From Planctomycetota bacterium (lineage in GTDB: Bacteria; Planctomycetota; B15-G4; JADJEK01), in NCBI GenBank assembly GCA_016709145.1, contig JADJEK010000009.1, forward strand, positions 126,368 to 190,367: 64,000 nucleotides of DNA, written 5' to 3'. A model generated the notes under the pieces. The model did not search any database and had not been told where the DNA came from. It saw nothing but the letters and a program-made list of their open reading frames with translations. Shown here piece by piece: positions 4,407 to 48,566 of the stretch; the stretch's first letter is position 1; each line of letters opens with the position of its first letter. Both the position numbers and the translations under genes were made by a program.

Positions 4407-4413
4407 GGTCGCG

Positions 4414-20816: not shown

Positions 20817-21919
20817 TCGTCGCGGTCGACGTCTCGCCCGCGCTGAAGCACGCGCCCGGCGTCGGGCGCTATGCGCGTGAACTCACGCGAGCCCTGGTGC
20901 GACGCGCGGACGCGCCGGCATTGCGATTGCTCGAAGTCGGTCGCGCGCCGCACGTGCTTCCGGTCACGGCGCTCGGACTCGACGCCGCTCGCGCGAGCGG
21001 CGTCGATGTCCGCGTCACGCGAGTCTCGTTGCCGCGTCGCGTGGTCGGTGCACTCGGTCGCGTCGGTTGGACGACCGAACGCTGGGTCGGCGGCGCCGAC
21101 GTCGTGCATCAAGTGTTGCCGTACGAGCCGCTGCCGACGCGCACGGCGCTGAGCACGCTGACGCTCTCCGAGTTGCCCGAGCCGCGCTCCGCCGACGAAC
21201 CCACGCTGCGCACCACGCTATTGCGCACCGAACGCGCTCTCGTGTTCTCGACGTCCGCGCGCGACGAACTGACGCGACGCTACGACGTCGATGCATCGTG
21301 GATCGACGTCGTGCCCGTCGGCGCCGATCACTGGGCGCGCGAAACGACGGCGACGCACGAACGCCGCTCACCTCCCGAAGTCCTCGTGCTCGGCCAAGCG
21401 TCGTCCTCGCGACGACCGGATGCGATCGTCGCGGCGTGCGAGCGCGTCGTCGCCGCGGGGCTCGAGTTGCGTCTGCGTTTCGTCGGACCGAAGGGCGATC
21501 TCGGCGACGCGTTGCGCGCTCGGCTCCTGCGATCGGCGTTGGCAGGGCGCGCGACGATCGAGCCCGGAGTCGAAGCAGAGATGCCGGGTCTGGTGGCCGG
21601 CGCGGGCGTGCTCGTGCATCTCAATGACGTCGAATGGACGGCGGTCACGCCGCTCGAAGCACTCGCCGTCGGCGTGCCGGTCGTGGTGTCGCGGATCCCC
21701 GCGTTCGTCGAAGCCCTCGGCGACGAGGCCGGCTACGTCGACGACGACGCGGAACTCGCCGACGCGATCGCGGCGGCGATCACGACCGACTCGCCGGCGA
21801 CGCGGATGCGGCGACGTGATCTTGCGCGCTCGTTCACGTGGGACCGCAATGCGGCCGCGACGATCGACGTCTGGACGCGGATGGTCAGCGCGCGGGACTC
21901 GGGTCCGACTTCATCGTGA
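20813..21919 (+). CDS. glycosyltransferase family 1
   Basis: GTG start overlaps the upstream stop (GTGA). C-terminal GT1 core (VHLNDVEWTAVTPLEALAVGVPVVVSRIP). Confidence 0.65.
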   Translation: MIVAVDVSPALKHAPGVGRYARELTRALVRRADAPALRLLEVGRAPHVLPVTALGLDAARASGVDVRVTRVSLPRRVVGALGRVGWTTERWVGGADVVHQVLPYEPLPTRTALSTLTLSELPEPRSADEPTLRTTLLRTERALVFSTSARDELTRRYDVDASWIDVVPVGADHWARETTATHERRSPPEVLVLGQASSSRRPDAIVAACERVVAAGLELRLRFVGPKGDLGDALRARLLRSALAGRATIEPGVEAEMPGLVAGAGVLVHLNDVEWTAVTPLEALAVGVPVVVSRIPAFVEALGDEAGYVDDDAELADAIAAAITTDSPATRMRRRDLARSFTWDRNAAATIDVWTRMVSARDSGPTSS

Positions 21920-23444
21920 GCTTGCGCACGAAGTAGATCGCCAGGCCGATCAACAACCAGATGCCGAAGCGCTCCCACGCGTGGACCGGCAGGCCGAGCA
22001 TCACGTAGATGCACGCGCCGATCGACGTCGGCGCGACGATCCAGATGAAGGGGACCTGGAACGGTCGGTGGATCTCCGGGTGCTTCACGCGCAGCACGAG
22101 CACGCCGAGCGACACGATCGCGAACGCGGACAGCGTGCCGATGTTCGTGAGGTCGTAGGCGGCGTCGTCGTCCCACACGGCGGCGCCGATCGCGACGATC
22201 AGACCCGTGACGATCGTCGTGACGTGCGGCGTGTGGTACTTGGGGTGGAGCTTCGCGAACACCTTCGGCAACAGCCCGTCGCGCGACATGGCGTAGAAGA
22301 TGCGCGGTTGCCCGTACTGGAACACGAGCAGCACGGCCGCCATCGAGATCACGGCGCCGAGCGAGACGATGAACTGCGCGGCCGGGAACTTCTGCAGCGC
22401 GATCGCGAGCGGATCGGCGCCGTTGCCGAGTTCTTGGTAGGGCACGAGGCCGGTCGCGACCAATCCGACCACCATGTAGAGCACGGTGCAGATCGCCAGC
22501 GAACCGAGGATGCCGATCGGCATCGTGCGTTGCGGATTCTTCGCTTCCTCGGCCGCGGTCGACACCGCGTCGAAGCCGATGAACGCGAAGAACACGATCG
22601 CGGCGCCATGGTGGATGCCGGTCCAGCCGTTCGGGGCGAAGTCCTTCCAGTTCTCCGGGTTCACGTTCCACGCGCCGACGCCGAGGAACAGCGCGAGCAC
22701 GCCGAGCTTGATCCAGACCATCACGTTGTTGGCCTTAGCGCTCTCGCGGACGCCGCGCACGAGCAGCCACGTGATCGCGAGCGTGATCAGGACCGCGGGG
22801 ACGTTGACGATGACGTCGAAGCCCCACAGCTTCGGCGCTCCGTCGACGATTCCCTGCATCTCGGCGACGCGCGCGGTCGCCGTCTTGAGCGCCTCGGGCG
22901 TGGCGTCGACGGCTGCGGTCAATTCGGCCAACGACGCTTGGCGGGACGCGAGCTGCTGGAACACGTCGCCGTAGCTGAACATCAGCCAGCGGGGCGGCTC
23001 GATGTCGAACCCGCGCAACAGCGAGTCGAAGTAGTTCGACCACGCGATCGCGACGCCGACGTTGCCGATCGCGTATTCGAGCACGAGGTCCCAGCCGATG
23101 ATCCACGCGACGAACTCGCCGAGCGTGGCGAACGCGTAGGTGTAGGCCGAGCCGGACACGGGGATCATCGCCGTGAGCTCGGCGTAGCACATGCCGGCGA
23201 GCATGCAGACGAAGCCGAGCAGCGCGAACGAGAACACGACGGCGGGGCCGGCACCCTCGCGCACGCCGGGCACGCCGACCGCGGCGGTGCCGAGCGTCGA
23301 GAAGATGCCGGCGCCGATGATCGCGCCGATGCCGAGGAAGATGAGTTCCTTCGGACCGAGCACGCGCTGCAGCCGATGCTCGCCGCGTTCGGCGGCTTCG
23401 CTGAGTTCGCCGACGCTCTTCGTGCGGAACAGATTCCAGCCCAT
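21885..23444 (-). CDS. APC-superfamily amino acid permease
   Basis: Start taken at MGWNLFRTKS. 12 predicted transmembrane segments. Amino-acid permease N-terminal signature (LGPKELIFLGIGAIIGAGIF). 3' end overlaps the convergent GT1 gene by 35 nt. Confidence 0.8.
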   Translation of the reverse strand: MGWNLFRTKSVGELSEAAERGEHRLQRVLGPKELIFLGIGAIIGAGIFSTLGTAAVGVPGVREGAGPAVVFSFALLGFVCMLAGMCYAELTAMIPVSGSAYTYAFATLGEFVAWIIGWDLVLEYAIGNVGVAIAWSNYFDSLLRGFDIEPPRWLMFSYGDVFQQLASRQASLAELTAAVDATPEALKTATARVAEMQGIVDGAPKLWGFDVIVNVPAVLITLAITWLLVRGVRESAKANNVMVWIKLGVLALFLGVGAWNVNPENWKDFAPNGWTGIHHGAAIVFFAFIGFDAVSTAAEEAKNPQRTMPIGILGSLAICTVLYMVVGLVATGLVPYQELGNGADPLAIALQKFPAAQFIVSLGAVISMAAVLLVFQYGQPRIFYAMSRDGLLPKVFAKLHPKYHTPHVTTIVTGLIVAIGAAVWDDDAAYDLTNIGTLSAFAIVSLGVLVLRVKHPEIHRPFQVPFIWIVAPTSIGACIYVMLGLPVHAWERFGIWLLIGLAIYFVRKLTMKSDPSPAR

Positions 23445-23553
23445 GCGCGTGTGCCTCCGTGTCCTCGGACCCGAGCCGGCCTGAGCGGTCGGGTCGATGC
23501 GGCGCGCCATTGAAGGAGTGCCGAGGCCGAAACGCACGCCCCAGCCCCAAAAG

Positions 23554-23586: not shown

Positions 23587-26500
23587 CTAGCGCTGGGCCT
23601 CGCGGACCTCGACGCGTAGCTGGGGGGCGAAGGTCCTTCGCTCCGGTTCGTAGTACGGCGCGATCCGCGAGGCCGGGCCCGTCGTCGTGCCGGGGATGCG
23701 GGCGACGAGGTCGACGTGGAGCGTTCGTTCCGGCTTCGCGCCGAACGAGCGCCAGTAGACGACGAGGTCGCGACCGCGCAGCTCGGCGAAGTCGACCGCG
23801 TTCGACGTCGCGAGCCGTTCGAGTTCGCGCGCCTGGAGTTCGAGGCCCGCGGGGATGCCGAGCACGCCGACCACCATCCCCACGTCGGTCGGGTCGACTT
23901 TCGTGATGCGCGCCGAAAGCCGCGTCAGCGCGCCTTCTTCGACTTGGGTCGCCGACAGCTTGGTCACGATCCGCAGCACGGCGTCGGCCGCGTCGTCGGG
24001 TTGATCGAGGCGACCCTCGACCGCCACCGTGAACGGCAAGTTCGAACCCTCGACCGACCGCACGACGATCGAGTGCGAGCCCGCGCGCAGCGCCGCCGTG
24101 AAGCCGTCGAGCACGACCGGCTCGGTCTCGCCGTCCTTCACCTCGACCGCCCCGGCGAAGCCACCGTCGATCGTCAATTCGAACCGCCCGCCGCCGCGCG
24201 CGTCGAGCCCGAACTCGCGCCCCGCGAGGATCGCCTTCAGCGCCATCACGGTCGCCTGCGTCGCGCCGAACGAGCCGTCGCCCTTGCGGAACGACAACAG
24301 CGCGTCGAACGCGCGTGCCGCGACCGCGCGGTGCGCCGGGTCCGACGCGAGCGCGAGGATCGCGAACGCCGTGGTCTCGACCGTCAGGTTCGCGCCGCGC
24401 GATCCGGTCATGCTCGGGGCCGATCCCGTGAACGTCCCGTCTTCGGCCGCCATCGCGGCGAGGCGATGTCGCGCGGACTGCGCGGCATCGTCGCGACCCG
24501 CGGCCGTGAGAGCTCCGGCGCACAGCGCGAGCTCGTACGCGTCGATCGTCGACTTCGCTCGCGCGGCCAGCGCACCGAGTTCGGCGTTCAGCGCGGTTGC
24601 ATCGCCCGTCGTCGCGAGCGCATACGTGACGTACGCGTTCGTCGTCGTCTTCGAGGCTCCGCCGAACGACGCGAACGCGCCGTTTGCTCGATTGAACCCA
24701 CCCTTGCCGTCGCGGCGCGACACGAGCCACGCGCGCGTCCGCTCGACCAGCGCGGGATCGACGTCGAACACGCCTCGCATGTCGTGGAATTGCATCAGCC
24801 CGTACGCCGTGAGTCCCTCGTGCGCGGGCGACTTGCCGAACCATTCGAAGCCGCCGCCCTCGACCTCGAACGACGTCAGTCGCGCGTAGCCGTCCGCGAC
24901 GAGCTTCGCCGTGTCCTTCGTCGCGGCGCGCGCGTCTCCGGCCGTCGGCCCGAGGTCCTTCAACAGGTGCAGTGCGAGCACGTTCGGGTAGTTCACGCTC
25001 GAGGTCTGCTCGAAGCAGCCGTACGGCTCGCGCAGCATGCCGCGCAGTCCGTCCCCGAGTTCCGACAACGGCGACGTGTACAGCGTCAGCGTCGCCGTCG
25101 AGCGCTCGACGTCGAAGCCGCTCGGCAGCGTCAACGCGAGTTCGCCCGTGAAGCCGGTGCGCCCCGACACCGCGCGGAGGTACGGGAAGCCGCGCGGCGT
25201 GATGGCGACGCGGTGCGTCACGCGATCCGCCCAGCGCCCGCCGCTGGCGTCGAGCTCGATCGTCCCGTCCCAGGTCGGCGTCGCGATGGCGGTGAACGGC
25301 ACGTACGCGCGGCCGCCGCCGTCGGCGAGCGCGACGTCGAACCGCTCGACCGTCCTGTCGCCGCGCAGCGCATCGCCGAGCGTCACGCGAACCTGCGCGG
25401 CGCCGAGCGTGTCGTCGTCGCTGCGCAGCGCGATCGGCATGCGGACGTCGTCGCCATCGGTCAGCTCGATGGGCAGCACCGGCTCGATCGACAATGGACG
25501 CCCGGTGTGGAACGACGCCGCGCCGAAGCCGACGCGGCCGGCGGCCATGCCGTCGGCGACGACGTCCCACTGCGTCAGTCGATCGCTGGTGTCGAACTCG
25601 ATCGTCGCGTCGCCGTTCGCATCGGTGGCGAGCGCGGTCTGCCAGCACAACAACGACGCGAAGTCGCTGCGCGTCTCGCTCGCGCGATGCTCGTGCACGT
25701 ACGCACGCAGCGCGGCGACGGTCGCTGCATCGACGTCGACGTCGTCCGTGGTCGTCGCGATCGATGTGCGCGGAGCGATCAGGTCGGCGAGCCCGGCTTC
25801 GTGCATCGGCGATCCCGTCGTGAACCTCGAACCTGGCTTCGACTCAGTGGGCCGGTCGGCGCCGCCAGGCTCGATCTCTTCGTCTGCGAGACGAGCCTGG
25901 ATCGCAATCGACTCGACAATGGCCCAAGACCCCTCGGACGTGCGAACCTGAATCCTCGACAACGCGAACAGCACGAGCAGTGTCGGTGCTCCCGCGACCG
26001 TGAGTCGCGCGAACGCGCGGTACCACGGCGACGCGATCGTCTCCGTGAACCTCCGCGTCCACCAAGCGAACAGCGCGAACAACCCGAAGATCGCGAGCAA
26101 CGCGATCGCGATCGCCGCGGCGCGCGTGGCCTGTCCGGTCCGATGGCGCGCGTCGCGCTTCGCGGCTTCGATCGCGTACGACGTGTCCTCGACCTTCGTC
26201 GCGTCGGACCGACCTTCCTTGAGGGCAACGCTGCGCGCGAGCGCGAGCGCGACCGGATCGTCCGTCGTCGGATCCATCGTCTGCGCCGACCCTCGGCGCG
26301 CGCCGCGCGTCCCGAGCAAGAGGTCGAGCGCGAGACTCGATCCGGTGTCGGCCGGAGCGGCCCAAGTGAGCGCGGCGACGTGTTCCGGATCGTCGACGTC
26401 GCAGAACAGCCACGTCTGGTGGAACAGGTCCTGCCGCGGCCGGCCGGCGAGATCGGCGAGCGCGTGGTCGTGGACCGACAGTCCGACGATCGCGCGGCTC

Positions 26501-28347
26501 GGAGCTCCGGATTCGTCGGTGGTGCGGACGTGCAGCGTCTGTCGCTCGCCAGGACCGAGGATCGCCTGCCGCGGCGTCAGCGCGACGTGGACCGCGCGCG
26601 CGGGCTTGCGATGCACGAGGCGCTGCGCAAGCGGCCGTCGATCGGCGCCGAGCACGCCGACGCGCAACACGCCCGCGATCGAGTCCGGCGGCGTCAGCAC
26701 GACACTGGCTTCCGTCGTCGGCTCCACGTCCTGGTGCGCGACGAGCACGCCGCGGCAGAACAGCGCGACGGTCAGCGCCTGCGCCGTCGACGCACGGACG
26801 TGGAGGCGAACTGGCTCGCCGGCCGCGAACGAGTCGCTGGTCGACTCGAGCACGACACCGTCGGATTGCGTCGCGGGCAGCGTCGCGGGATCCGCCGCGG
26901 GCGAGTCGAACTCGACGCGGTACGAGCGTCCGTCGCGCGGCGTCAGCGCGAACCGCGCGCGCCCGCGCTCGTCGGCCTCGAACGCCACGACGTCGGAGCC
27001 GCGGTCGTCGACGACGCGCCCGCGTGCGGCCGTCGGTCGTCCGCTCGGCGTCGTCACCTGCGCGTAGACGCGGGTCGGCAATTCCGCGACGAGCGCCCCG
27101 CCCTCGGGGAAGAACTGGACGTCGAGTCGCCGCAACGCGAACGCGAACGGTTGCGCCTTCGTCTCGAGGTCGCCGCGGTCGCGCACGCGCACCGCGAACG
27201 ACGCGTCGCCGACGCGCACGTCCTTCGGCAACGTGAACGCGATCGACGCCTTGCCTTCGCCATCGAGTTTCGCGACGTGCGTCGACGACGCCTCGCCGTC
27301 GACGAATACGACCGCGTCGATCGCGGCGCCGGCGGCCGCTCCGCCGCTCGCGCGCAGGACCTCGATCGTCGCGCGTCCCTTCGCGCCCGGCGCGTACGTC
27401 GCGCGATCGAGCGCGATCGTCGTGAACAGGCGCGGCGCCTGCGTGCTCGCGACGGTGAGACTCGAGCGCGCGAGCTCGATGCCATCCGTGTTCAGCGCGA
27501 GGACGGTCCACGTGCCGGCTGGTGAGCGCTCGTCGAGGACGAATTGCGCGACCGCGATTCCGTCGTGAGGAGTCACGTCGCGCGCCGCTGCACGGTTTCG
27601 CGTCGGATCCTCGAACGCGATCCGCAATGCGTCGGCGCGCGGATCCAACGTCAGTCGATCGAGTGCGACGGCGCGCACGCGGATCACGTCGCCGGGCCGG
27701 TACGCGGGTTGACTCGTCGACAGAGCGACCATCGGCGCGTTGGCCGCAGCGGCGAGGTCCCACTCGAGCCCGCCCATGGCGTCGCCGGATCGCGCTTGGA
27801 TTTCGAGTCGCGCCGGCGCCGCGGCGAGCGGCGGCACCGACAGCGTCCGCAGATTGCCGTCGCCGACCGCGACGCCGTGATGCAGCAGCGTGCCTTCGCG
27901 ATCGAGGATGCGGCCTTCGACCGTGATCGCTTCGCCGTGCGTCGGCACGGCGACGACGTACTCGGTCGGCGCGAACGCGGAGATCGACGCCGGACCGGTC
28001 AAGCGGATCGCCAGTGCAGTGTCGTCGAGGCGCTGCTCGCGCCATTGGAACCAACCCGCCGCGATCAGCGGCCCGACCAACGCGATCGTGATCGCGGCGA
28101 CGGCGGCGGCTCTCGTCCACGCGAACACACGCGAACGCAGCGAAGGCGTGAACTTCAGAGCGAGCGTCGGCATCTCGGCGCGCGCGGCGTCCGACAAGCC
28201 CGTGGCGATGCGCGCCGCTTCACGGTCCAGCGCCGAGAGCTCGGGATCCTCGCGCAGTCGCAGGTTCAACGCGTCGGGGTCGGGATGACAGCCGAAGCGC
28301 AACTGCAGTAGCTCGTCGAGCAGTCGTTCGCGGTCCGCGGGATTCAT
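23587..28347 (-). CDS. alpha-2-macroglobulin-family thioester protein fused to an anti-sigma-factor-like cytoplasmic N-terminus and transmembrane segments
   Basis: 1586-aa ORF whose ATG overlaps the stop of the ECF sigma gene (ATGA). Residues 1-85 are helical and acidic, then a TM helix (AAVAAITIALVGPLIAAGWF), MG-like beta-sandwich repeats, a TM hairpin near residue 740, an MG domain with a TDANGDATIEF...DRLTQW motif, and a thioester motif PYGCFEQ followed by thioester-domain signatures (GGGFEWF, LTAYGL, TTNAYVTYALA). Confidence 0.8.
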   Translation of the reverse strand: MNPADRERLLDELLQLRFGCHPDPDALNLRLREDPELSALDREAARIATGLSDAARAEMPTLALKFTPSLRSRVFAWTRAAAVAAITIALVGPLIAAGWFQWREQRLDDTALAIRLTGPASISAFAPTEYVVAVPTHGEAITVEGRILDREGTLLHHGVAVGDGNLRTLSVPPLAAAPARLEIQARSGDAMGGLEWDLAAAANAPMVALSTSQPAYRPGDVIRVRAVALDRLTLDPRADALRIAFEDPTRNRAAARDVTPHDGIAVAQFVLDERSPAGTWTVLALNTDGIELARSSLTVASTQAPRLFTTIALDRATYAPGAKGRATIEVLRASGGAAAGAAIDAVVFVDGEASSTHVAKLDGEGKASIAFTLPKDVRVGDASFAVRVRDRGDLETKAQPFAFALRRLDVQFFPEGGALVAELPTRVYAQVTTPSGRPTAARGRVVDDRGSDVVAFEADERGRARFALTPRDGRSYRVEFDSPAADPATLPATQSDGVVLESTSDSFAAGEPVRLHVRASTAQALTVALFCRGVLVAHQDVEPTTEASVVLTPPDSIAGVLRVGVLGADRRPLAQRLVHRKPARAVHVALTPRQAILGPGERQTLHVRTTDESGAPSRAIVGLSVHDHALADLAGRPRQDLFHQTWLFCDVDDPEHVAALTWAAPADTGSSLALDLLLGTRGARRGSAQTMDPTTDDPVALALARSVALKEGRSDATKVEDTSYAIEAAKRDARHRTGQATRAAAIAIALLAIFGLFALFAWWTRRFTETIASPWYRAFARLTVAGAPTLLVLFALSRIQVRTSEGSWAIVESIAIQARLADEEIEPGGADRPTESKPGSRFTTGSPMHEAGLADLIAPRTSIATTTDDVDVDAATVAALRAYVHEHRASETRSDFASLLCWQTALATDANGDATIEFDTSDRLTQWDVVADGMAAGRVGFGAASFHTGRPLSIEPVLPIELTDGDDVRMPIALRSDDDTLGAAQVRVTLGDALRGDRTVERFDVALADGGGRAYVPFTAIATPTWDGTIELDASGGRWADRVTHRVAITPRGFPYLRAVSGRTGFTGELALTLPSGFDVERSTATLTLYTSPLSELGDGLRGMLREPYGCFEQTSSVNYPNVLALHLLKDLGPTAGDARAATKDTAKLVADGYARLTSFEVEGGGFEWFGKSPAHEGLTAYGLMQFHDMRGVFDVDPALVERTRAWLVSRRDGKGGFNRANGAFASFGGASKTTTNAYVTYALATTGDATALNAELGALAARAKSTIDAYELALCAGALTAAGRDDAAQSARHRLAAMAAEDGTFTGSAPSMTGSRGANLTVETTAFAILALASDPAHRAVAARAFDALLSFRKGDGSFGATQATVMALKAILAGREFGLDARGGGRFELTIDGGFAGAVEVKDGETEPVVLDGFTAALRAGSHSIVVRSVEGSNLPFTVAVEGRLDQPDDAADAVLRIVTKLSATQVEEGALTRLSARITKVDPTDVGMVVGVLGIPAGLELQARELERLATSNAVDFAELRGRDLVVYWRSFGAKPERTLHVDLVARIPGTTTGPASRIAPYYEPERRTFAPQLRVEVREAQR

Positions 28348-28874
28348 GGCCGGCCTCCGGCGTCGGATTCGGGTTCGAGCGGCGCGAGCTCACGCCGCAG
28401 TCGCATCAGCGCCGACCGCATGCGCGTCTTCGCGGTGCCGAGCGGGATCGACAGCGCTTGCGCGACCGCTTCGAACGACAGGCCGCCCGACACGCGCAGC
28501 ACGAACACTTCCTTCTCGGAGTCGTCGAGGTGCTCGATCGCGCTGCGTGCGCGTAGCACGAGTTCTTCTCGTTGCAGGCGCGCGTCGGGTGGGGCTTCGG
28601 GCGAAGGCAGTTCCATCGGGTCCTCGTCGCTGTGGTCGCGGGCGCGACGATCCCTGCGCCGGCGCACGTCGCGGGCGCAATTCATCGCGACGACGAACAC
28701 GAAACCGAGAGGGTCCGTCCGAATGCGTCGCTCGCGGTGAGCGACAAGCACGCGCGCGAACGACTCCTGCAGCACTTCGCTCGGATCGGCCGCGGGGCCG
28801 AGCACGGAGCGCACGGCGCCGGCGAGGCCGGCCCGATGATCCTGGAACAGTGCCAGCAGCTCGACTTCGTCCAT
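28344..28874 (-). CDS. ECF (sigma-70 family group IV) RNA polymerase sigma factor
   Basis: Start taken at MDEVELLALFQDH. Region 2 (ESFARVLVAH) and region 4 HTH (LSFEAVAQALSIPLGTAKTRMRSAL). Alternative upstream start at MDLVRF (about 29024). Confidence 0.8.
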   Translation of the reverse strand: MDEVELLALFQDHRAGLAGAVRSVLGPAADPSEVLQESFARVLVAHRERRIRTDPLGFVFVVAMNCARDVRRRRDRRARDHSDEDPMELPSPEAPPDARLQREELVLRARSAIEHLDDSEKEVFVLRVSGGLSFEAVAQALSIPLGTAKTRMRSALMRLRRELAPLEPESDAGGRP

Positions 28875-29273
28875 CGTTCGCTCGCTGGAGACGGCGGAGA
28901 CGTCGCGCAGATTGCGAATTCCCCGAACGAAGTCGATCGCGGAATCCGGCACCGAGCCGTGACGGAGGGGTGGCGAGTCGGTGACGACGGGGAGTCGGTG
29001 GTCGAGGAAACGGACGAGGTCCATCCACGGCTCGCGCAAAACGGCGGCGGGTGCGTTTGCGTGGATCGGGTGATCCTGAGCGGTGCGCACGATCGCTTGG
29101 GCAAAGCGACGCGATCGAAGGCGAGCCTCGGGACGCTCGCCCAGCGCGGTCGCAGCGCGTGGCAGCTTATTCCCCCGTGGCATGGACCTTGCAAAGTCCC
29201 TCGCCCCCCGCGATCGCGCACCTCGAGGCTCCCCTTCGTGGTGCGCGTCTCTCCCGATCCGAGGAAGGCACCC

Positions 29274-31169
29274 ATGATCCACCGTTGCGCGCGACTCGTT
29301 GCGCTCGCGCTCGCGTTCGGCTTCGCGCCGACGACGCTGGCCCAAGAACTCCCGCTGTCCGGCACGAACGGCGTGTTCGTGTTCGAAGTCACGCAGCCCG
29401 GCGGACTGACGCAGATGCACGTGATCGCGCCGACCTTGAGCGCGACGTCCGCGGTGCCGATCGGGAATCCGGTGACCGGGGTTCCGTCGCGTTGGGCGCA
29501 TCGTCGTCGCACGCTCGGAGCGCTCGAGACCGAGCTCGCGTTCGCACCGCCGTTCGTCGTGATGGCGCCGATGGGGGATGTGGTTGGTACTGGCGGCATC
29601 CACTTCGTCGACGCACGCACGAACCCGATCACGTCGACGCTGGTCCAAACCGGCGGTAACCCGATCGGCTACGACCTGCTCGTCGACTCCACGCGTCAGC
29701 GCGTCTACGCGGTGTCCGACGACGGGCTCGGCGGCACGATCGTCCACGGCTTCAGCTACGCGACGCCCGGAACGCTGACCGCGCTGACGCCGCCGAGCGT
29801 GACGTTGCCCGGCGCGCCCTCCGCGTACGTGAACCGGATCACGATCGATCCCTCGACCTCGGCGTTGATCGTTCCGACGTCGACGGGCCTCGGCATCGTC
29901 GCGCAGTCCGCGTCCGCTCCGCAGATTGCGCAGTCGGCGTTCCTGTCGACCGGAGTGTTCGCGCCGGCGACGAACGCTGCGCCCGTGACGCGCGCGGGCT
30001 CCACGCAATGGTCGATCGGCTTGTGCCGCTTCGACACCATCAACAACGCCCCGCGTGAAGCGGGGATCGCATTGTTCGACACCACCGCGATCGCGCATCA
30101 GGCGAGCTTCGGCATCGTGCCGCTCGTGCCATCGAAGTTCTGGGTGCCGGCTGCAGGTACGCACGAACTCGCGGTGGTCGGCGACGGCGTCGATGCATAC
30201 GTGTACTTCCTGCTGCGCGAGCCCGGCCCGGGCACGTTCTTCGTCAAGCCTTCGGCGATCGGCGCGCTCGCGCTGGTCGGGAACAACGCTCCGTACACCG
30301 GCATCGTGTCGGTGCCGAATCTCTGCGGCGAACCGTTCGCGATTCCGACGACGTTCGGTGCGCGCGTCGCGTTCGAGTCGAGCTTCGGCCTGCCGTTCAC
30401 GCCGAATCCGCCCGGCGGCGGCGAGATCAACAACCTGCTGTACACGCCGCTCGATCCGCTCGGCGCATCGACGACGTTCGGCTTGGTCGCGGTGCCCGGT
30501 CCGCTGGGTGGCCGCATCAGCACGAAGGGCTACGAGCGTCCGCTGTGGAGCCGTGACGGCACGCGCCTCGTCGCGACGACGAGCCATTTCCCCGGCGCTC
30601 CGAATCCCGGCGTGCCCGGCGTCGAAGTGCTCGAGGTCCCGGCCGACGTCGTGCTGACCGAGTTCAACTCGCCGTCGACGATCGTGCCGAGTCCGACCTT
30701 CCCGGTGCAGGCGATCTTGCAACCAGGCACGTTCCTGCCCCGTGATCCGAACGGTGCGCTCGCGGTGAACGGGCTGTCGTTCGTCGGCAACGTGTTCAAC
30801 GACGGCTTGCGCTCGGTCGCACTGACGACGTTCGGAGCGGTCGGGCAGTACCAGATCGAGACGCCGAACTTCGTGCAGTCGCCGGACGTGCCGAACTTCC
30901 CAGCGATCTTCCCGCCCGCGTTCCTCGATGCGACCGGTTCGCTGACCGCGGTGCCGGCGACGTTCGGCGCGCGGCGCACGAGCTTCAACTTGATCCCGGG
31001 CTTCGGGCTCAGCGGCATGGTCATGGCCGCAGCCGTCGACGACGAGGTCGTGCTGCAGCTCACGGGCTACGACACGCTCGCGGCGCTCGGGCTGTTCGCG
31101 CCCGCGCCGGCGCTGCGCTTCGCGCTGCCGGCCGGAGGTCGCGTGAGTTCCGAAATCACTTCACTGTGA
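29274..31169 (+). CDS. secreted hypothetical protein (631 aa, Gly/Pro/Thr-rich, no recognisable domain), divergent from the ECF sigma gene
   Basis: Start at MIHRCARLVALALAFGFAPTTLAQ (signal peptide) with a GAGGAAGG Shine-Dalgarno 6 nt upstream. In frame with the longer ORF 28572..31169. Confidence 0.6.
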   Translation: MIHRCARLVALALAFGFAPTTLAQELPLSGTNGVFVFEVTQPGGLTQMHVIAPTLSATSAVPIGNPVTGVPSRWAHRRRTLGALETELAFAPPFVVMAPMGDVVGTGGIHFVDARTNPITSTLVQTGGNPIGYDLLVDSTRQRVYAVSDDGLGGTIVHGFSYATPGTLTALTPPSVTLPGAPSAYVNRITIDPSTSALIVPTSTGLGIVAQSASAPQIAQSAFLSTGVFAPATNAAPVTRAGSTQWSIGLCRFDTINNAPREAGIALFDTTAIAHQASFGIVPLVPSKFWVPAAGTHELAVVGDGVDAYVYFLLREPGPGTFFVKPSAIGALALVGNNAPYTGIVSVPNLCGEPFAIPTTFGARVAFESSFGLPFTPNPPGGGEINNLLYTPLDPLGASTTFGLVAVPGPLGGRISTKGYERPLWSRDGTRLVATTSHFPGAPNPGVPGVEVLEVPADVVLTEFNSPSTIVPSPTFPVQAILQPGTFLPRDPNGALAVNGLSFVGNVFNDGLRSVALTTFGAVGQYQIETPNFVQSPDVPNFPAIFPPAFLDATGSLTAVPATFGARRTSFNLIPGFGLSGMVMAAAVDDEVVLQLTGYDTLAALGLFAPAPALRFALPAGGRVSSEITSL

Positions 31170-31280
31170 ACCATGGAACGACGACCGGCGCGCGTGCGTC
31201 GGTCGTCGTTCGTTCCGGTCTTCCCCGTTGTCCGCGTTTCCTCGACGCCCTGTCGTTTCCCCGGAAGAAGGAGTCTCTCG

Positions 31281-32507
31281 ATGCTTCGCTCTCTGCTCAC
31301 GTGTCTCTCGCTGTTCGGTGCTTCGCAAGCGTTCGCGACCGATTGGGTCGTCGACGCGACCGGTGCCGGGTCGTCGTTCACGACGCTGAATCAAGCGATG
31401 GTCGCGGCGTCGCCCGGCGATCGCATCCTCGTGCATCCGGGCAGCTACCCGGCGTTCCAGATGTTCAAGGGCGTGACGGTGCTCGGACTTGGGCCGTCGC
31501 CCGATGCCGTGAAGATCGCGCGCTGCGACTACCACCCGCTGCAGCCGCTCGTGAACTACGACTCGGCGCTGATGAACCTCGCGCTCGGCAGTGCGGCCGA
31601 CGAGGACTCGATCGCGCTGACGGGCAACGAGCTCGCGCTCGGCACGCTGACGCTCGATTCGGTCGTCGTCGACGGCGCCGTGTTCCTGCGCGGCGGCAGC
31701 ACGGGCTTCTACCTGCAGATGTCGAACTGCTCGGTCGTCGCGCAACCGGGTGAGGGATTCGCGGGCGAAGCGATGTGGTTCGGCGGCATCGGCAATCGGC
31801 TCGACGTCCACGACAGCCGCATCGTCGGTTGGGACTGCCCCGAGTCCACGCCGGCGGTCGGCGCGGGCGTCGGATTGCGGCTCGCGCCCGGCACGCAGGC
31901 GCGCCTGACGGATTCGGTCGTCGCGGGTGGTTCGGGCCTCGGCGCCGGAGTCGCTGGAGCGACCGGGCTCGTCGGTTCGACCGGAACGCTCGAGTTGCTC
32001 GGTTCGACGTCGGTGCATGGCGGCAACGCGTCGCTGACGGCGAATGGCGGCGCGGGCGTCGACTTCGCCGGTTCGTTGCGCACCGGTGCGTCGATCGACG
32101 TCGCGGGCGGTTCTGGCGCTTCGACCGGACCGGCGTACGCGAGCGGGATGCCGAGCGCGTTGCCGGTGGATCCTTCGATCACCGTTGTTCCCGACCGTGA
32201 TATCGCGAGCGGACCGTTCGCGGTCGCGAGCGGCGAAACGCTCGGCTTCTCGACGGCGACCGCGGCCGGCTCGACGGTGCTGCTGATCGGATTCGGCGTC
32301 GATTGCCCGCCGCCGAGCGCCGCGGTGTTCCTGCCGCTCTCACCGGCGCCGATGCTGCTCGTCGGTGGAAACGCGCTGTTCGCTACCGTGCCCGCGTCGA
32401 CGGTCGGACCGCTGTTCGGCATCGAGGTGTTCGCGCAAGCGGCCACCGCGAGCCCGGAGGGCGTGCTGCTGTCCGGAGTCGTCTCCACGAGGATGAACCT
32501 GCAATGA
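31281..32507 (+). CDS. secreted right-handed parallel beta-helix repeat protein
   Basis: Signal peptide MLRSLLTCLSLFGASQAFA with a GGAAGAAGGAG Shine-Dalgarno. Gly-rich repeats with the periodicity of pectate-lyase-fold proteins. Confidence 0.6.
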   Translation: MLRSLLTCLSLFGASQAFATDWVVDATGAGSSFTTLNQAMVAASPGDRILVHPGSYPAFQMFKGVTVLGLGPSPDAVKIARCDYHPLQPLVNYDSALMNLALGSAADEDSIALTGNELALGTLTLDSVVVDGAVFLRGGSTGFYLQMSNCSVVAQPGEGFAGEAMWFGGIGNRLDVHDSRIVGWDCPESTPAVGAGVGLRLAPGTQARLTDSVVAGGSGLGAGVAGATGLVGSTGTLELLGSTSVHGGNASLTANGGAGVDFAGSLRTGASIDVAGGSGASTGPAYASGMPSALPVDPSITVVPDRDIASGPFAVASGETLGFSTATAAGSTVLLIGFGVDCPPPSAAVFLPLSPAPMLLVGGNALFATVPASTVGPLFGIEVFAQAATASPEGVLLSGVVSTRMNLQ

Positions 32508-35251
32508 TCCGATCGTCCGCGCGAACCACGTTCGCCGGCGTTGCGTCCGCCATCGCCCTCGCCGCGGGAGTCCTCGCGGCGGGGGCGAGCGCGCAAACGC
32601 CGGCAGCGCCGAGCCCGGCCAAGAAGGCCGATCCGACCAGCGAAGAAGTTCCGTTGCCGGCGCTCGCCGGCTGGAACGGCACGCTCGTGATCGACAACGA
32701 CGTCGGCGTGTGGACGACGCTCTCCGCCGACATCCTGCCCGGGCACGGGTGTCCGCAGATCGTCGGGCTCGACGACAAGGGCCGCTGCATCGTGCTGTTC
32801 TCGTACAGCGGCAAGTGGACGCCGCTGCAGACGGTCGAGGACGGCGAGTGGCTCGGCGCGTTCGAGTTCGTCGATCTCGATCCGCAGCGACCGGGTCGCG
32901 AGATCTACACCGGCGGCAAGCGCGGCAACCTGTTCTGCATCCAGCCGAACGCGCCGCGCGATCCGGCGCTGAAGACGCCGCCGTTCCAGACCGACGTCGT
33001 CGCGCGCTTTCCCGGCGAAGAGCTGCACACGATGGTCGGCGGCGACTTGCTGCCGTCCGAGCCCGGCAACGAGCTGCTGCTGTACACGCTTCACGGTGCG
33101 GCATACCGCCTGAAGCCGCCGCGCGAGCCGCGCGGCATGCTCGTCGTCGAACCGCTCGGCGACGTCGGTGGTCGCGTACGCGAAGCGAAGATCCTGCCGG
33201 CGCGCGCGGGCGAAGCGCCGTGGATCGCGTGCGTGCTCCGTAGCGGTGAGATCCAACTGCAGCGCCTCACGCCAGGCGGCATCGAGCGCAAGACGATCAC
33301 GAAAGAACCGATGGGCTTCGGTCGCCTCGCGCTGCGCAAGTCCGCGGTCGGCGAGCCGGTCGTGTTCTACGCGACGCGCGACGATGGCGTCGTGCTGCGC
33401 TTCGAGGGCAGCCCCGACCGCGACGCATGGACGCGCGAGCTCGTCTACGCCGGGCCGCAAGGACCGCGCGGACTCGCGTGCGGGCGCTTCTCGGCGGATC
33501 CCGACGAAGAGACGATCGCGGTGTTCGGCTACGCGGCGAAAGTGCAATTGCTGTCGCGCAAGCGCGGGCAGCCGTGGCGCGCGGAGACGATCTTCGTCGA
33601 GCGCGACAAGGGCCATTGGCTCGCCGCGGCGGAGCTCGACGGCCGCAATGCGACGGACGAGCTGATCGCGTCGGGCTACGGCAAGCGTGTCGTGCTGCTG
33701 TCGCGACCGCCGGGATACGGCCTCTCGAACGTGCCGACCGACCCGGATCCGCCGCAGCCGCCGACGGTCGATCCGGGCAAAGCCGGCGCGCAAACTGCGC
33801 CGGAGGGCAAAGCCGGCGCGCAAGCTGCGCCGGCGGGCGACGGCGCGCTGCGCGTCGCGGTGCGCGCGCGGTTGCGCGAACCGGGCCGCGTCGACCCGCT
33901 GAAGTACCACGGCGGCTTCGAGACCAAGACGCTCGTCTACGAGACGCTCGTCACGCGCGACGCCGCCGGACGCATCGCGCCGAAGCTCGCGTCGGCGTGG
34001 GAACTCGAGGATGGTGGAGCGACCGTGAAGTTCACGCTGCGCGAGGGCGCGACGTTCCACGACGGCACGCCGGTCGACGCGCAAGCGGTCGCGATGCACT
34101 TCCGCCGCGTGCTCGGCTTGCCCGAGCACGCGTGGTTGCGCGGGCTCGCTCGCGTGCGGTCGGTCGACGTCGACGGGTCGCGCGTGCTGCGCTTCCGCCT
34201 CGACGCGCCGTGCTCGCTGCTGCCGGATCTGTGCGCGGTGAATCCGTGTTCGATCCGCGCGCCGTCGACGCTCGACCGCGAAGGCGAGTTCGTGCGCGCG
34301 ATCGGCAGCGGTCCGTTCAAGGTCGAGGCGGCGGACTCCGACGGCATGCGCTTGGCGTGGACGCGCGGCAAGGCGCGCTCACCGGTGCAGCTCGTGTTCG
34401 CGTCGGGCGCCGCGGCGGACCTCGTCGATCGTGTGCTCGGCGGTGAGTTGGACGTCGTCGCCGACGGTTGGAGCGAACTCGTCGATCGCTCGCGCGTCGC
34501 GGCGTTGAGGGACGATCCGCGCGTGCGCGTGATCGGCGGGCCCGGGTCGTCCGTCACGTACTTGTCGTTCCTGATCCGCGAGGGGCCGACCGCCGACCCG
34601 GCCGTCCGCGCGGCCGTGGCCGCGGCGATCGATCGCGCGGAACTCGTCAAGGACGTCGAGTTCGGCTGCGCGCAGCCGTGCGCGACGTTCGCCGCTCCCG
34701 CTGTCGCCGATTGGCCGCGAGCGACGCCGCGCGCGTCCGCGACGGACGTCGCGATCGATCGAGCGCTCGTCGTCGTCGGCGACGGCGCGACGCGCGACGG
34801 TCGGCTCGCGGGCGCGATCGTGGCGCAGCTCGCGCGGCGCGGAATCGCTGCGCAGGCGCGCGTGCTCGAAGGAGCGGAACTCGCGAAGGCGATCGAAGGC
34901 GGGGAGTACGACGTGCGGATCGAACGAACCTGGGGAGTGCCGTACGACCCGTACCTGTCGTTCGTGAATCGGTTCTCGACGCCGACTACCGGCGCGACCG
35001 CGGCGACGAAGCCGGTTGCCGGGTTCGACGCGGAACTCGCTCGGATCGCGGACGCGTTGCGCGGCGAGGTCGATCCCGCGAGGCACGGGGAGATGTACCG
35101 GAAGGCTCAGGCTCGGATCGAGGAAGCGAGTGTCGTCGTGCCGTTGTTCGTCGCCGAGAGGGTCGGAGTCGTGCGGAGCGGGGTTGGGGAGATTGCGATG
35201 GGGGTGAATCTTTATGAGATCGGGTTGGAGGGGGTTTTGCGCGGGCGGTGA
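32504..35251 (+). CDS. secreted fusion protein: N-terminal beta-propeller-like repeat domain, Pro-rich linker, C-terminal ABC-type solute-binding protein family 5 (DppA/OppA/NikA-like) domain
   Basis: ATGA overlap with the upstream gene. Signal peptide. Repeated hydrophobic-strand motifs (VLFSYSG, EIYTGG, VVFYAT, IAVFGY, LIASGYG). C-terminal LKYHGGFETKTLVYETLV...ASAWELEDGGATVKFTLREGATFHDGTPV matches SBP_bac_5. No permease or ATPase genes adjacent. Confidence 0.65.
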   Translation: MIRSSARTTFAGVASAIALAAGVLAAGASAQTPAAPSPAKKADPTSEEVPLPALAGWNGTLVIDNDVGVWTTLSADILPGHGCPQIVGLDDKGRCIVLFSYSGKWTPLQTVEDGEWLGAFEFVDLDPQRPGREIYTGGKRGNLFCIQPNAPRDPALKTPPFQTDVVARFPGEELHTMVGGDLLPSEPGNELLLYTLHGAAYRLKPPREPRGMLVVEPLGDVGGRVREAKILPARAGEAPWIACVLRSGEIQLQRLTPGGIERKTITKEPMGFGRLALRKSAVGEPVVFYATRDDGVVLRFEGSPDRDAWTRELVYAGPQGPRGLACGRFSADPDEETIAVFGYAAKVQLLSRKRGQPWRAETIFVERDKGHWLAAAELDGRNATDELIASGYGKRVVLLSRPPGYGLSNVPTDPDPPQPPTVDPGKAGAQTAPEGKAGAQAAPAGDGALRVAVRARLREPGRVDPLKYHGGFETKTLVYETLVTRDAAGRIAPKLASAWELEDGGATVKFTLREGATFHDGTPVDAQAVAMHFRRVLGLPEHAWLRGLARVRSVDVDGSRVLRFRLDAPCSLLPDLCAVNPCSIRAPSTLDREGEFVRAIGSGPFKVEAADSDGMRLAWTRGKARSPVQLVFASGAAADLVDRVLGGELDVVADGWSELVDRSRVAALRDDPRVRVIGGPGSSVTYLSFLIREGPTADPAVRAAVAAAIDRAELVKDVEFGCAQPCATFAAPAVADWPRATPRASATDVAIDRALVVVGDGATRDGRLAGAIVAQLARRGIAAQARVLEGAELAKAIEGGEYDVRIERTWGVPYDPYLSFVNRFSTPTTGATAATKPVAGFDAELARIADALRGEVDPARHGEMYRKAQARIEEASVVVPLFVAERVGVVRSGVGEIAMGVNLYEIGLEGVLRGR

Positions 35252-36685: not shown

Positions 36686-37999
36686 ATGGAGAGCAAGAGC
36701 CCGCTCGGTCGTCTGTCCGTGATGATGTTCTTGCAGTACGCCGTGTGGGGTGCGTGGCTGCCGATCGCGGGGCGCTTCTTCGGTGCCGCACCCGAGACGG
36801 GCGGCCTCGGCTTCAGTTCCGCGGACATCGGGTTGATCCTCGGTGTCGCGGCCTCGATCGGCGCGATCGCCGCGCCGTTCGTCGCGGGGCAGATCGCGGA
36901 TCGCTACTTCCGCACCGAGCGCTTCCTCGGCTTCCTGCTGCTCGTCGGCGCGGCGCTGCAATGGAAGTTGCGCTCGAGCACGACCGTGAACGAGTGGCTC
37001 GTGCTCGGCTCGCTGTACTCGGTGCTGTACATGCCGACGCTGGCGTTGTCGAACTCGCTGGCGTTCGCGCATCTGAACGACCGTACGCGTGAGTTCGGCA
37101 AGGTCCGCGTGTGGGGCACGATCGGCTGGATCGCGGCGAGCTGGATCTTCCCGATGATCTGGTTGCAGCACGACCTGGAACTCCAGGCGATGCCGCCGTT
37201 CCTCGTCGGACCGGAGATGGATCGCGTCACGGGACGCCTCTCGGACGCGTTCCTGTTCTCGGCGATCGTGTCGGCGATCTACGGCGTCTACGCGCTGACG
37301 TGCCTGCCGGCGACGCCGCCGAAGAAGGACGCGACGCAGAAGCTCGCGTTCGCGCGCGCGTTCGCGCTGCTCGCGAAACCGTCGATGGCCGTGCTGATGC
37401 TGGCCGGGCTCGCGATCAGCATGATCCACCAGATCTACTTCATCCAGGCCGGGCCGTTCCTGTCGGCGATCGGGCTGAAGGACAGCGAAGTCGGGCCCGC
37501 GATGACCGCCGGGCAGTTCTCCGAGATCCTGATGATCGCGATGCTCGGGTTCGCGTTGAAGCGGCTCGGCTTCAAGCTGACGTTGACGCTCGGTGCGCTC
37601 GCGTACTTCGGGCGCTACTTCGTGTGGTCGACGGAAGGCGTGACGCCGACGATCGCCGTGACGAGCCAGGCGCTGCACGGCATCTGCTACGCGTTCTTCT
37701 TCGCGTCGGCGTACATCTACGTCGACCGCCTCGCGCCGCCCGACGTGCGCCACTCGGCGCAGACGATGTTCGGCATCGTCATGCTCGGCGGCGGACCGAT
37801 CCTCGGAGGAGCGTTCGTGAACCGCTGGCTGTCGGAAGCCAACACCGTGAAGCTCCTGCAAGACGGCGTCGAACTGACGAAGCTCGAGTTCGGCCCGTTC
37901 TTCCGCACGCTGTCGTGGATCGGGCTCGGCGCTGCCGCATTGATCCTGTGGGCGTTCAAGGACGAGACCAAGGACGAGACCAAGGAACAGGCGTCGTGA
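36686..37999 (+). CDS. MFS transporter, nucleoside:H+ symporter (NHS) family-like
   Basis: 437 aa, 12 transmembrane segments. N-terminal LSVMMFLQYAVWGAWLP motif characteristic of NupG/XapB-type transporters. Confidence 0.65.
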   Translation: MESKSPLGRLSVMMFLQYAVWGAWLPIAGRFFGAAPETGGLGFSSADIGLILGVAASIGAIAAPFVAGQIADRYFRTERFLGFLLLVGAALQWKLRSSTTVNEWLVLGSLYSVLYMPTLALSNSLAFAHLNDRTREFGKVRVWGTIGWIAASWIFPMIWLQHDLELQAMPPFLVGPEMDRVTGRLSDAFLFSAIVSAIYGVYALTCLPATPPKKDATQKLAFARAFALLAKPSMAVLMLAGLAISMIHQIYFIQAGPFLSAIGLKDSEVGPAMTAGQFSEILMIAMLGFALKRLGFKLTLTLGALAYFGRYFVWSTEGVTPTIAVTSQALHGICYAFFFASAYIYVDRLAPPDVRHSAQTMFGIVMLGGGPILGGAFVNRWLSEANTVKLLQDGVELTKLEFGPFFRTLSWIGLGAAALILWAFKDETKDETKEQAS

Positions 38000-38610
38000 T
38001 CGTGCGCCGCGGCTTCGTGCTGCTCGTGCTGACGGGCGCACTCGGGTTCGCCGCGGACGAACCCGAGTCGGTGCCGGCAGCGCAGGTCGACTTCAAGCTG
38101 AACGACCGGCTGCGTGTGTTGTGGGACCCGTCGACGTGCACGCTCGCGCGCACGTCGAAGCCGGACGGCGTCGAATTGCCCGATCCGCTGGTCGGAATGC
38201 GATGGGCCGCGACGCGACTCGGTGCGCCGATCGCCGTGACGCCGCGCTTCGTCGAGGTCGTCACGAAGGACGGCAAGCCCGAGATCCGCTACGTGCTCGC
38301 GCTCGAAGGCGTCGCCGAGATCGAGGTCGCCGAAGCCATCGACGACTACACGCACGACGACAAGGGTCGGCCCGCGTGCTGGCGGCGCTTCCGCATCGGC
38401 GAACTGCCGCACGGCGTCGTGCTCGCGCAAACACGCGACGACGTGTCGCTCGCGGCAGCCCGCGTGCTCGCGCGTTCGAACGCGACGTGGACGTGGGGCG
38501 AAGCCCGCTTCGTGCGCGGCATCGGCGGCGAGTTCGCGCTCGTTCGGACGGCTCGCTTCGAGTTCCCGCAGCGCGGCGAGACGATCGTCACGGTGGTCTA
38601 CGACGCTTGA
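37996..38610 (+). CDS. hypothetical secreted protein
   Basis: GTG overlapping the upstream stop (GTGA). Signal-like N-terminus. No motif recognised. Confidence 0.4.
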   Translation: MIVRRGFVLLVLTGALGFAADEPESVPAAQVDFKLNDRLRVLWDPSTCTLARTSKPDGVELPDPLVGMRWAATRLGAPIAVTPRFVEVVTKDGKPEIRYVLALEGVAEIEVAEAIDDYTHDDKGRPACWRRFRIGELPHGVVLAQTRDDVSLAAARVLARSNATWTWGEARFVRGIGGEFALVRTARFEFPQRGETIVTVVYDA

Positions 38611-38649
38611 CCCCACGCGCCGCTGCGCGGCCGTCGGAGTCCGAGTGGA

Positions 38650-39615: not shown

Positions 39616-39847
39616 GGCGCCCGATCGTGCCAACGTCCGACGCGAACGGGAAGGGCGCCGAGCGGTTCGCTCGCGGTGATCTCGGCTGTCGCGGGTGGGG
39701 CGAATCGGCCGGGCCGCGGCGCGCGGGACCTCGCGCCGCGGCCCGTGGAGCGATAGGGTTGGCGCACGTTCAGGGACGCGGACAGGTGCCCCCCTGTCGC
39801 CGTCCGATCGGTATCCCCCAGGCGGGATCAACTCGAGGAGTCACGCC

Positions 39848-41095: not shown

Positions 41096-41197
41096 CCGCG
41101 GGACACGAGCCGTTCGATGTTCGTCTGCGCGAGCGCGCCGGATCCTCGGGTTCGGCGCGCTCGCGGCACGAATCGGCGCGCTAGACTCCCGCCCCGC

Positions 41198-43795: not shown

Positions 43796-43829
43796 CCGTC
43801 GCGCGAGTCCGACCGATCCTGGAGCGAAC

Positions 43830-47512: not shown

Positions 47513-47718
47513 GGGAACTCGGAGAGCGATGCAGGCGGCGAACTGTGGAACCCCGTGGTGGCGGAGAACCACGCAAGAAAATGACTCGGTCCTGCGTGAG
47601 GGGTCAATGATTCGACGATCTCGCGCCTCGATGCGGTCTTTCCGCGCAACGGCTCGGAGGCGGGCCTGGTCAGCGGGGGATCTCCACTCCCAAGACGTTC
47701 CCGCGCCGTCCACCGCAT

Positions 47719-48555: not shown

Positions 48556-48566
48556 ATGCGTTCGGG

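Follow-up and report, generated by a model that had tools for sequence, protein, structure and literature searches.

We here describe a pair of overlapping genes on the minus strand of a stretch of 64,000 nucleotides from a Planctomycetota bacterium (assembly GCA_016709145.1, contig JADJEK010000009.1, positions 126,368 to 190,367), to which we refer as the window. The first gene encodes a sigma factor of the extracytoplasmic function (ECF) type, and the second encodes a fusion protein in which a predicted anti-sigma domain is followed by an alpha-2-macroglobulin (A2M) with a predicted thioester. The window is ordinary chromosomal DNA of high GC content (~69%), and its best match is a Planctomycetota metagenome-assembled genome (L019) with 82% identity over the fragment compared. 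The features of the gene pair are listed in the following, where TM stands for a transmembrane helix, MG for a macroglobulin domain and TED for the thioester domain.

28889..28913, minus strand: ECF-type promoter motif AATCT-N15-CGTCT, a single match in the 64 kb window
28344..28874, minus strand: ECF sigma gene, 176 aa, limited to the sigma-2 and sigma-4 regions
28344..28358, minus strand: translational-coupling junction, read from the sequence, with a GGAGG Shine-Dalgarno element (28354-28358) and an ATGA stop/start overlap (28344-28347)
23587..28347, minus strand: anti-sigma::A2M fusion gene, 1586 aa, intact open reading frame (ORF)
28168..28347, minus strand: predicted zinc-less ZAS-type cytoplasmic anti-sigma domain, residues 1-60, with RLREDPEL in place of HxxxCxxC
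28042..28116, minus strand: TM1, residues ~78-102, predicted N-in/C-out (Kyte-Doolittle 2.15, 19-residue window)
26368..28035, minus strand: MG1-MG6, residues 105-660, all-beta in the model, running to a conserved DLLLGTxGxRR motif
26128..26367, minus strand: pre-hairpin bait linker, residues 661-740, largely modelled with low confidence
25939..26127, minus strand: transmembrane hairpin, residues 741-803, strongly hydrophobic, consisting of TM2, the R-rich loop WWTRRFTETIASPWYRAFAR and TM3
25684..25938, minus strand: post-hairpin bait linker, residues 804-888, acidic and predicted to be disordered (model confidence below 50 over residues 800-888, on the pLDDT scale introduced below)
25054..25683, minus strand: MG7 (Pfam A2M) followed by the first CUB half, residues 889-1098, confidently modelled
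24229..25053, minus strand: TED, residues 1099-1373 (Pfam TED_complement), modelled as an alpha-alpha toroid with pLDDT >90
25006..25020, minus strand: thioester motif GCFEQ, residues 1110-1114, from the translation
23590..24228, minus strand: second half of CUB and a C-terminal MG8/receptor-binding-like domain, residues 1374-1586, with a weak bMG10 match and confidently modelled beta domains

Domain architecture of the gene pair

A preliminary description of this DNA had noted that the long gene overlaps the stop codon of the sigma gene by ATGA. We see this overlap at the junction listed above, where GGAGG stands 6 nt ahead of the start codon of the fusion gene, and an overlap of this type (-4) is also the most frequent junction in the related loci. 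The reading frame of the fusion gene is genuine, since its GC content is 0.88 at third codon positions (GC3) compared to 0.54 at second positions (GC2); third-position GC backs the frame of the sigma gene as well. Orthologues of the fusion protein with 84% and 65% identity align to it colinearly along 100% of its length, and more than 20 independent loci, in assemblies from different samples and taxa, likewise have a single ORF. An exact copy of the 1586-aa protein was not present in the protein collection searched.

The 176-aa protein matches the Pfam families Sigma70_r2 (residues 9-77) and r4 (residues 112-160), and also r4_2, and it scores 64.7 bits against the NCBIfam model TIGR02937 (sigma70-ECF, cutoff 42.9). 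It contains only the sigma-2 and sigma-4 regions and lies within ~170-200 aa, which is the layout of group IV. These matches back the earlier assignment, and the protein is confirmed as an ECF (group IV) sigma-70 factor.

The N-terminus of the fusion protein is recognisable as a predicted anti-sigma domain of class I type. To describe its structure and that of the remaining protein we use two AlphaFold2 models that were built from family alignments, one of residues 1-900 and one of residues 621-1586. Residues 3-58 are modelled as three helices (predicted local distance difference test, pLDDT, 84-95). The segment of residues 1-60 ranks among the most conserved ones of the protein, with identities to three relatives (P0001, P0002 and P0003) of 93%, 70% and 55%, compared to 84%, 65% and 40% over the whole length. 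A search with residues 1-210 against 1.84 billion representative proteins resulted in 60 matches, nearly all of them located at the N-terminus of the matched protein; the full-length matches are mostly 1400-1830 aa long. Many of 82 homologues carry the motif HxxxCxxC at residues ~28-42 (at least 11 relatives; carriers are P0006, P0028, P0031-34, P0042, P0049, P0051-52, P0058 and P0081), several of which were already annotated with PF13490, and four of twelve family N-termini match Pfam zf-HC2 (best E-value 1.2e-8). When aligning nine N-termini without these cysteines, including that of the query, to eleven ZAS-bearing ones with hhalign, we find that the two sets are in register (probability 96.5%, E=7.5e-10), with DPE of the query beneath CPxC of the ZAS-bearing N-termini. 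Furthermore, the mixed family profile matches RslA of Mycobacterium tuberculosis (PDB 3hug_B, E=2e-4). The anti-sigma-like N-terminus of the preliminary description is thus recovered by profile comparison, and so is the transmembrane helix that was said to follow it: TM1 is found by hydropathy and lies inside a continuous modelled helix (residues 68-110).

In the models, the ectodomain is a complete A2M core in native-like geometry with a predicted thioester, because both halves match structures of the A2M family. The model of residues 1-900 (mean pLDDT 76.7) contains beta domains at residues 115-620, and a Foldseek search with the N-terminal half retrieves the beta chains of C3, C4 and C5, which hold MG1-6, with an E-value of about 1e-28 over ~600 columns. 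The model of residues 621-1586 (mean pLDDT 78.1; predicted template modelling score, pTM, 0.71) contains a confident MG7-CUB-TED-MG8 block. This block matches native A2ML1, frog A2M, C3, ECAM, SaA2M, CD109 and TEP1 (E-values from 1e-37 to 1e-33), and its TM-score is 0.50-0.57 with native forms compared to 0.25-0.29 with protease-activated forms. The Pfam matches are MG2 (residues 210-286, 2.7e-12), A2M (residues 901-981, 5e-7) and TED_complement (residues 1099-1373, 1.8e-24), together with weak matches to A2M_BRD (residues 500-631) and bMG10 (residues 1468-1569). Across 43 aligned family members, the G, C, E and Q of the thioester motif are invariant.

The motifs from which the A2M had been proposed (TDANGDATIEF...DRLTQW, PYGCFEQ, GGGFEWF and LTAYGL) are all found in the translation, and the similarity of the thioester region survives profile searches, as seen from the TED match in Pfam and the A2M-family matches in Foldseek. 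The proposed membership in the YfhM/ECAM family does not hold by sequence. A phmmer search of the PDB sequences matched the eukaryotic A2M, A2ML1, C4 and TEP1 and did not match ECAM or SaA2M; the nearest solved sequences are eukaryotic, and the 1586-aa protein has no match in NCBIfam.

Between MG6 and MG7 lies the bait region, with DLLLGTxGWRRF as the conserved motif on one side and RxDFxETLxW on the other. In secreted forms these motifs enclose 134-175 disordered aa, whereas forms with a hairpin have 206-397 aa, made up of a first linker of ~55-115 aa, two hydrophobic helices joined by a short loop that is commonly rich in R/K, and another linker of 96-234 aa. An internal transmembrane hairpin near residue 740 had been proposed earlier, and we find it at residues 741-803 by hydropathy and as two long modelled helices (~722-768 and 774-799, pLDDT 72-79). 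The pre-hairpin linker has a pLDDT below 50 at residues 679-731 in one model and is lower mainly at residues 685-703 in the other. The disordered and variable linkers of an A2M bait are thus present at the right position, but they are split by the transmembrane hairpin. The hairpin and the post-hairpin linker are the fastest-evolving parts of the fusion protein: identity to P0002 is 21% in the hairpin, where hydrophobicity is kept, and 35% in the linker, compared to 65% overall. As the loops between the helices are commonly R/K-rich, the sequences are consistent with a cytoplasmic hairpin loop, and both A2M halves would be located on the same periplasmic side because the logic of the domain requires it. 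In one relative from the Anaerolineae (P0081), about seven central transmembrane segments are present and not two.

Some relatives have a canonical lipobox at the end of the second hairpin helix (L026 of Rhodopirellula baltica BR-MGV, and P0007, L016, L034, L077, L082, P0035-P0047 and P0053). This subset spans R. baltica and a group of Chloroflexota, and examples are LIGC/G, VVGC/S and LVAC/AAPAAP, which follow a short basic loop. The sequences of these relatives suggest an internal lipoprotein signal peptide and a maturation into two chains at the site that divides the chains of C3, C4 and C5. At this position a cysteine is absent from the window protein (...LFALS/RIQV).

Distribution in relatives and a promoter motif

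By scanning one genome per species, we detected at least 588 relatives, and the best 80 were classified by hydropathy and with a hidden Markov model of sigma factors. Among these 80, a sigma gene abuts the A2M gene in 18 of the 18 evaluable loci with a central hairpin (E-values from 1e-51 to 1e-59). All 18 belong to Planctomycetota, and one is from R. baltica (L026). About 45 loci encode a protein with a signal peptide and no hairpin, and none of them has an adjacent sigma gene; at the locus of one secreted homologue, a LysR gene is located upstream instead. We furthermore inspected six independent metagenomic loci of the hairpin type. The ECF sigma gene is directly upstream in all six, either overlapping or within 5 nt, and the remaining neighbours are all different. 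The preliminary description had suggested a survey for ECF genes adjoining A2M-domain genes, and the survey returned the pairing at every evaluable hairpin-type locus in both samples. This shows that hairpin, anti-sigma domain and sigma factor are tightly coupled within the subfamily of the query.

In a neighbour-joining tree, the anti-sigma clade of the query is sister to a secreted clade whose members have the ordinary A2M layout, and anti-sigma forms are also found in a second, deeper subfamily. Many members are present in public databases, where they have automatic names only, such as 'zf-HC2 domain-containing protein' or 'anti-sigma factor RsiW'.

The motif AATCT-N15-CGTCT has the form of an ECF promoter, and its -10 element ends 14 nt ahead of the ATG of the sigma gene, resulting in a very short leader. 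Among 23 related loci, 11 have AATC[CT]-N15/16-CGTC 36-66 nt upstream of the sigma start, compared to a background of 0.02 per 120 nt, and across the related loci the motif is consistently recurrent only ahead of the sigma gene. As the motif is conserved at this position, autoregulation of the sigma-A2M operon from the predicted promoter is supported. The position of the motif also implies a leaderless or near-leaderless sigma mRNA (28875-28913, minus strand); the A2M gene, by contrast, has a clear GGAGG. Looser matches to the motif in the window are scattered inside genes. One of them (23412-23435), near the downstream gene, is a chance match that falls within the coding sequence of a permease. 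The divergent 631-aa gene (29274-31169) had been named as a candidate member of the regulon. This we do not uphold, as the gene has no copy of the promoter motif and is conserved only at the locus of the orthologue with 65% identity.

A candidate mechanism and its alternatives

The architecture of the module is solid, and its signalling mechanism is what we infer here. On balance, we find it probable that the two genes form an ECF sigma/anti-sigma module whose periplasmic sensor is a thioester A2M, and that this module is a sensor of protease attack that re-supplies a single-use trap. This reading agrees with the preliminary interpretation, whose architecture stood in every part examined and which loses the ECAM/YfhM family and the 631-aa regulon member. 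Judging from homology and synteny, the cytoplasmic N-terminal domain would hold the sigma factor at the inner membrane. The A2M would be displayed on the periplasmic face, where TM1 and the hairpin tether it and the hairpin splits the disordered bait into two exposed linkers. By analogy to known A2Ms, a foreign protease that enters the periplasm may then cut a bait linker, upon which the A2M would collapse and capture the protease via Cys1111 and Gln1114. The spent and cleaved anti-sigma factor would be destabilised and free the sigma factor, either after its clearance as far as TM1 and a subsequent site-2 cut or through TM1 rearranging against the hairpin. TM1 would have the N-in/C-out orientation of substrates of site-2 proteases. 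Finally, as the promoter motif suggests, the sigma factor would transcribe its own operon from AATCT-N15-CGTCT and thereby re-supply the trap, and other targets would be located outside the window.

Several observations weigh against this reading. The weakest step is the release of the sigma factor, which needs further clearance or a conformational relay: because ~640 periplasmic residues stay on TM1, a cut in the bait alone is not a canonical site-1 cut. In addition, we found no member of a regulon beyond the operon itself, neither with the strict motif in the 64 kb window nor at the related loci, and only autoregulation is supported because the strict motif has no second copy in the window. 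Outside the subfamily of the query, the hairpin and the coupling to sigma are separable. For instance, relatives from Chloroflexota such as L092 (Caldilinea sp. CFX5, P0037) combine a bait hairpin with a lipoprotein N-terminus and have no upstream sigma gene, and in a metagenome-assembled Planctomycetota member (L061) the ZAS motif and TM1 occur together with a different ECF sigma gene and without a hairpin. The thioester itself is also variable among relatives of the anti-sigma type: HGSFEH replaces GCFEQ in P0011, P0030 is without CxEQ, and P0054, P0058 and P0081 (1118-1165 aa) stop after the hairpin and MG7 and thus have no TED. Since some relatives lack the thioester or the TED, covalent trapping is not essential to the signal of these relatives. 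Lastly, the zinc ligands are lost in the query, which therefore does not show the HxxxCxxC that defines the ZAS subclass, and the N-terminus of the query alone has no match to Pfam zf-HC2.

A more specific version of the protease-sensor reading may be considered, which we put forward only tentatively. Here the anti-sigma factor would be a suicide substrate, where a foreign endopeptidase that cuts the membrane-pinned bait provides a trigger similar to a site-1 cut and thereby frees the ECF sigma factor, and the hairpin would be composed of a stop-transfer helix and an internal signal peptide, with a maturation into two chains as in C3, C4 and C5.

Among the alternatives, the one that survives best accepts a genuine sigma/anti-sigma pair and supposes that the A2M ectodomain senses the cell's own envelope or a ligand that is not a protease. 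The signal could come from endogenous periplasmic proteases, from the state of the membrane or peptidoglycan, or from small nucleophiles that react with the thioester; alternatively, the MG/TED scaffold may be a generic sensor. The relatives that lost the thioester or the TED and keep the anti-sigma domain, the MG domains and the hairpin would fit this explanation, as would a bait that is pinned at the inner membrane and not freely exposed. Thioester proteins of the C3/TEP type are furthermore known to tag targets other than proteases. However, the query keeps all elements of a working trap, in a geometry that is native-like in the models, and its bait linkers are long, disordered and fast-evolving, as expected of promiscuous protease substrates. 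Moreover, an ordinary A2M layout is found in the nearest secreted sister clade. We thus regard sensing of the envelope or of another ligand as unlikely.

A second alternative concerns the N-terminus, which might be a mere anchor derived from a former anti-sigma domain that no longer binds sigma; the sigma factor would then drive a membrane-anchored protective A2M and be controlled by other means. In favour of this alternative, HxxxCxxC has given way to RLREDPEL and the zf-HC2 match is missing for the query alone. The profile of the N-termini without cysteines is uninformative when compared to the PDB on its own, as it retrieves designed helical repeat proteins and a weak match to RskA (E=0.3). 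Yet the conservation of residues 1-60 above that of the whole protein, as given above, is unexpected for a mere tail, the type without cysteines occurs at the N-terminus of ~60 representative clusters, and the tight overlap of the genes is retained. Zinc-free class I anti-sigma domains are also well known. We therefore consider a mere anchor to be very unlikely.

Finally, an anti-sigma/MG gene and a separate A2M gene might have been joined at the hairpin by faulty assembly or a frameshift, which is an artefact of the type that the preliminary description was wary of and to which the three short relatives that end soon after the hairpin and MG7 (P0054, P0058 and P0081) might lend some colour. 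This explanation is effectively refuted, as the ORF runs without interruption and its coding statistics are uniform, the orthologues are colinear, and the same continuous ORF is present in more than 20 independent assemblies.

Surroundings, significance and comparison with known systems

The next gene downstream of the pair is the following.

21885-23444, minus strand: APC-family amino-acid permease (Pfam), on the same strand and ~140 nt downstream of the A2M gene

The permease gene is not conserved in other related loci. Its listed start (GTG at 23537) is probably too far upstream, and translation is likely to begin at the ATG at 23444 (MGWNLFRTK). Overlapping ORFs on the opposite strand are spurious by GC3; for one of 740 aa (21291-23513, plus strand), GC3 (0.66 vs 0.93) and Pfam favour the permease on the minus strand. 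A consensus scan detected no terminator between the A2M gene and the permease, and a GC-rich hairpin with UUUU after the A2M gene was rejected as a terminator because it is no better than shuffled sequence (z = -0.7). None of the PADLOC defence models matched, and among the neighbours scanned in the window we found no gene for a protease or a penicillin-binding protein (PBP) that is linked to the module.

Divergent from the gene pair lies a block of three genes on the plus strand. It consists of the gene for the secreted 631-aa protein (29274-31169, no Pfam match), a gene for a protein of ~410-444 aa without a match (31173-32507) and a gene for a large solute-binding protein (SBP_bac_5) that has a long extension at its N-terminus (32303-35251). 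The locus of the orthologue with 65% identity (L001) has the block in synteny, and more distant loci lack it. Further away, the window contains an 814-aa fusion of a Ser/Thr protein kinase to a formylglycine-generating enzyme-like (FGE-sulfatase) domain (51516-53960, plus strand), and a similar fusion is found near the anti-sigma::A2M gene in one related locus (L007). Genes for an aldehyde dehydrogenase, an enzyme of the proline racemase family and an FAD/2Fe-2S oxidoreductase (2796-8026, plus strand) resemble hydroxyproline catabolism. A set for nucleoside utilisation (36686-49565) includes two nucleoside transporters, a thymidine-phosphorylase-like enzyme, a purine nucleoside phosphorylase and a DeoC aldolase.

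Much work exists on ECF sigma/anti-sigma pairs and, separately, on bacterial A2Ms. In full-text literature searches, we found no description of a macroglobulin-type anti-sigma factor or of an ECF/A2M pairing, nor does an anti-sigma factor of this type appear in the main text of the ECF reclassification paper. We also found no paper in the searchable literature on an A2M with a membrane-embedded bait region. The earlier statement that the pairing has not been described therefore holds for the searchable literature, whereas members were already present in public databases under their automatic names. The module would add a new class of sensor to the anti-sigma factors and a new membrane topology to the A2Ms, composed of parts of known kinds.

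If the protease-sensor reading is true, the module would be a circuit resembling innate immunity, which both neutralises and reports proteases from competitors, predators or hosts, and a function would be assigned to a conserved planctomycetal ECF group. Enzymatic attack that is read by a suicide substrate would be a new type of input for anti-sigma sensing. With such a suicide substrate, the module would be the first transcriptional sensor of exogenous proteolysis in bacteria, in which each consumed trap is replaced automatically. The internal lipobox of some members bears on a possible origin of two-chain thioester proteins such as C3. Cultured carriers of orthologues such as R. baltica (L026) make the module testable, and swapping the bait on an orthogonal ECF switch could yield a programmable protease biosensor.

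Bacterial A2Ms of type I contain CxEQ and are adjacent to pbpC (PBP1c), and those of type II (MagD/YfaS) are without CxEQ and belong to the six-gene mag operon (PMC5764988). The fusion protein fits neither context. Unlike type I, its neighbours are an ECF sigma gene in place of pbpC and, downstream, an amino-acid permease; unlike MagD/YfaS, it has CxEQ and a different gene context. Like ECAM/YfhM and SaA2M, it would be a periplasmic, monomeric CxEQ trap with a bait region that is tethered to the inner membrane, and the MG7-CUB-TED-MG8 block superposes on ECAM (5a42, 4.3e-35) and SaA2M (4u48, 6.7e-34). In contrast to these two, the fusion protein has no N-terminal lipoprotein signal or lipobox and is tethered by TM1 and the bait hairpin, and its bait is much longer (206 aa).

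The nearest solved proteins by sequence and fold are C3, C4 and C5 and A2M, A2ML1, TEP1 and CD109, which share the core of eight MG domains, CUB and a TED with G-C-x-E-Q. The hairpin is located at the position where the beta and alpha chains of C3, C4 and C5 are split. Unlike complement and the eukaryotic A2Ms, the fusion protein is bacterial, integrated into the membrane and fused to a domain of transcription control, and it is without an anaphylatoxin domain.

On the side of the anti-sigma factors, membrane proteins of class I (ZAS type) such as RslA, RsiW and ChrR have the same helical anti-sigma domain of ~60 aa, linker and single N-in transmembrane helix, and genes of this type are located immediately downstream of the ECF sigma gene and overlap it, as they do here. 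The fusion protein differs from them by the absence of zinc ligands in the lineage of the query, by the thioester-A2M ectodomain of ~1480 aa and by two extra membrane crossings. The same logic is seen in RsiV-SigV of Firmicutes, where the ectodomain of the anti-sigma factor is a direct receptor of lysozyme, and engagement leads to the destruction of the anti-sigma factor and the induction of resistance. Lysozyme binding by RsiV is non-covalent and is followed by a cut of RsiV by signal peptidase, whereas in the module described here the hostile enzyme itself would cut the sensor and be covalently trapped.

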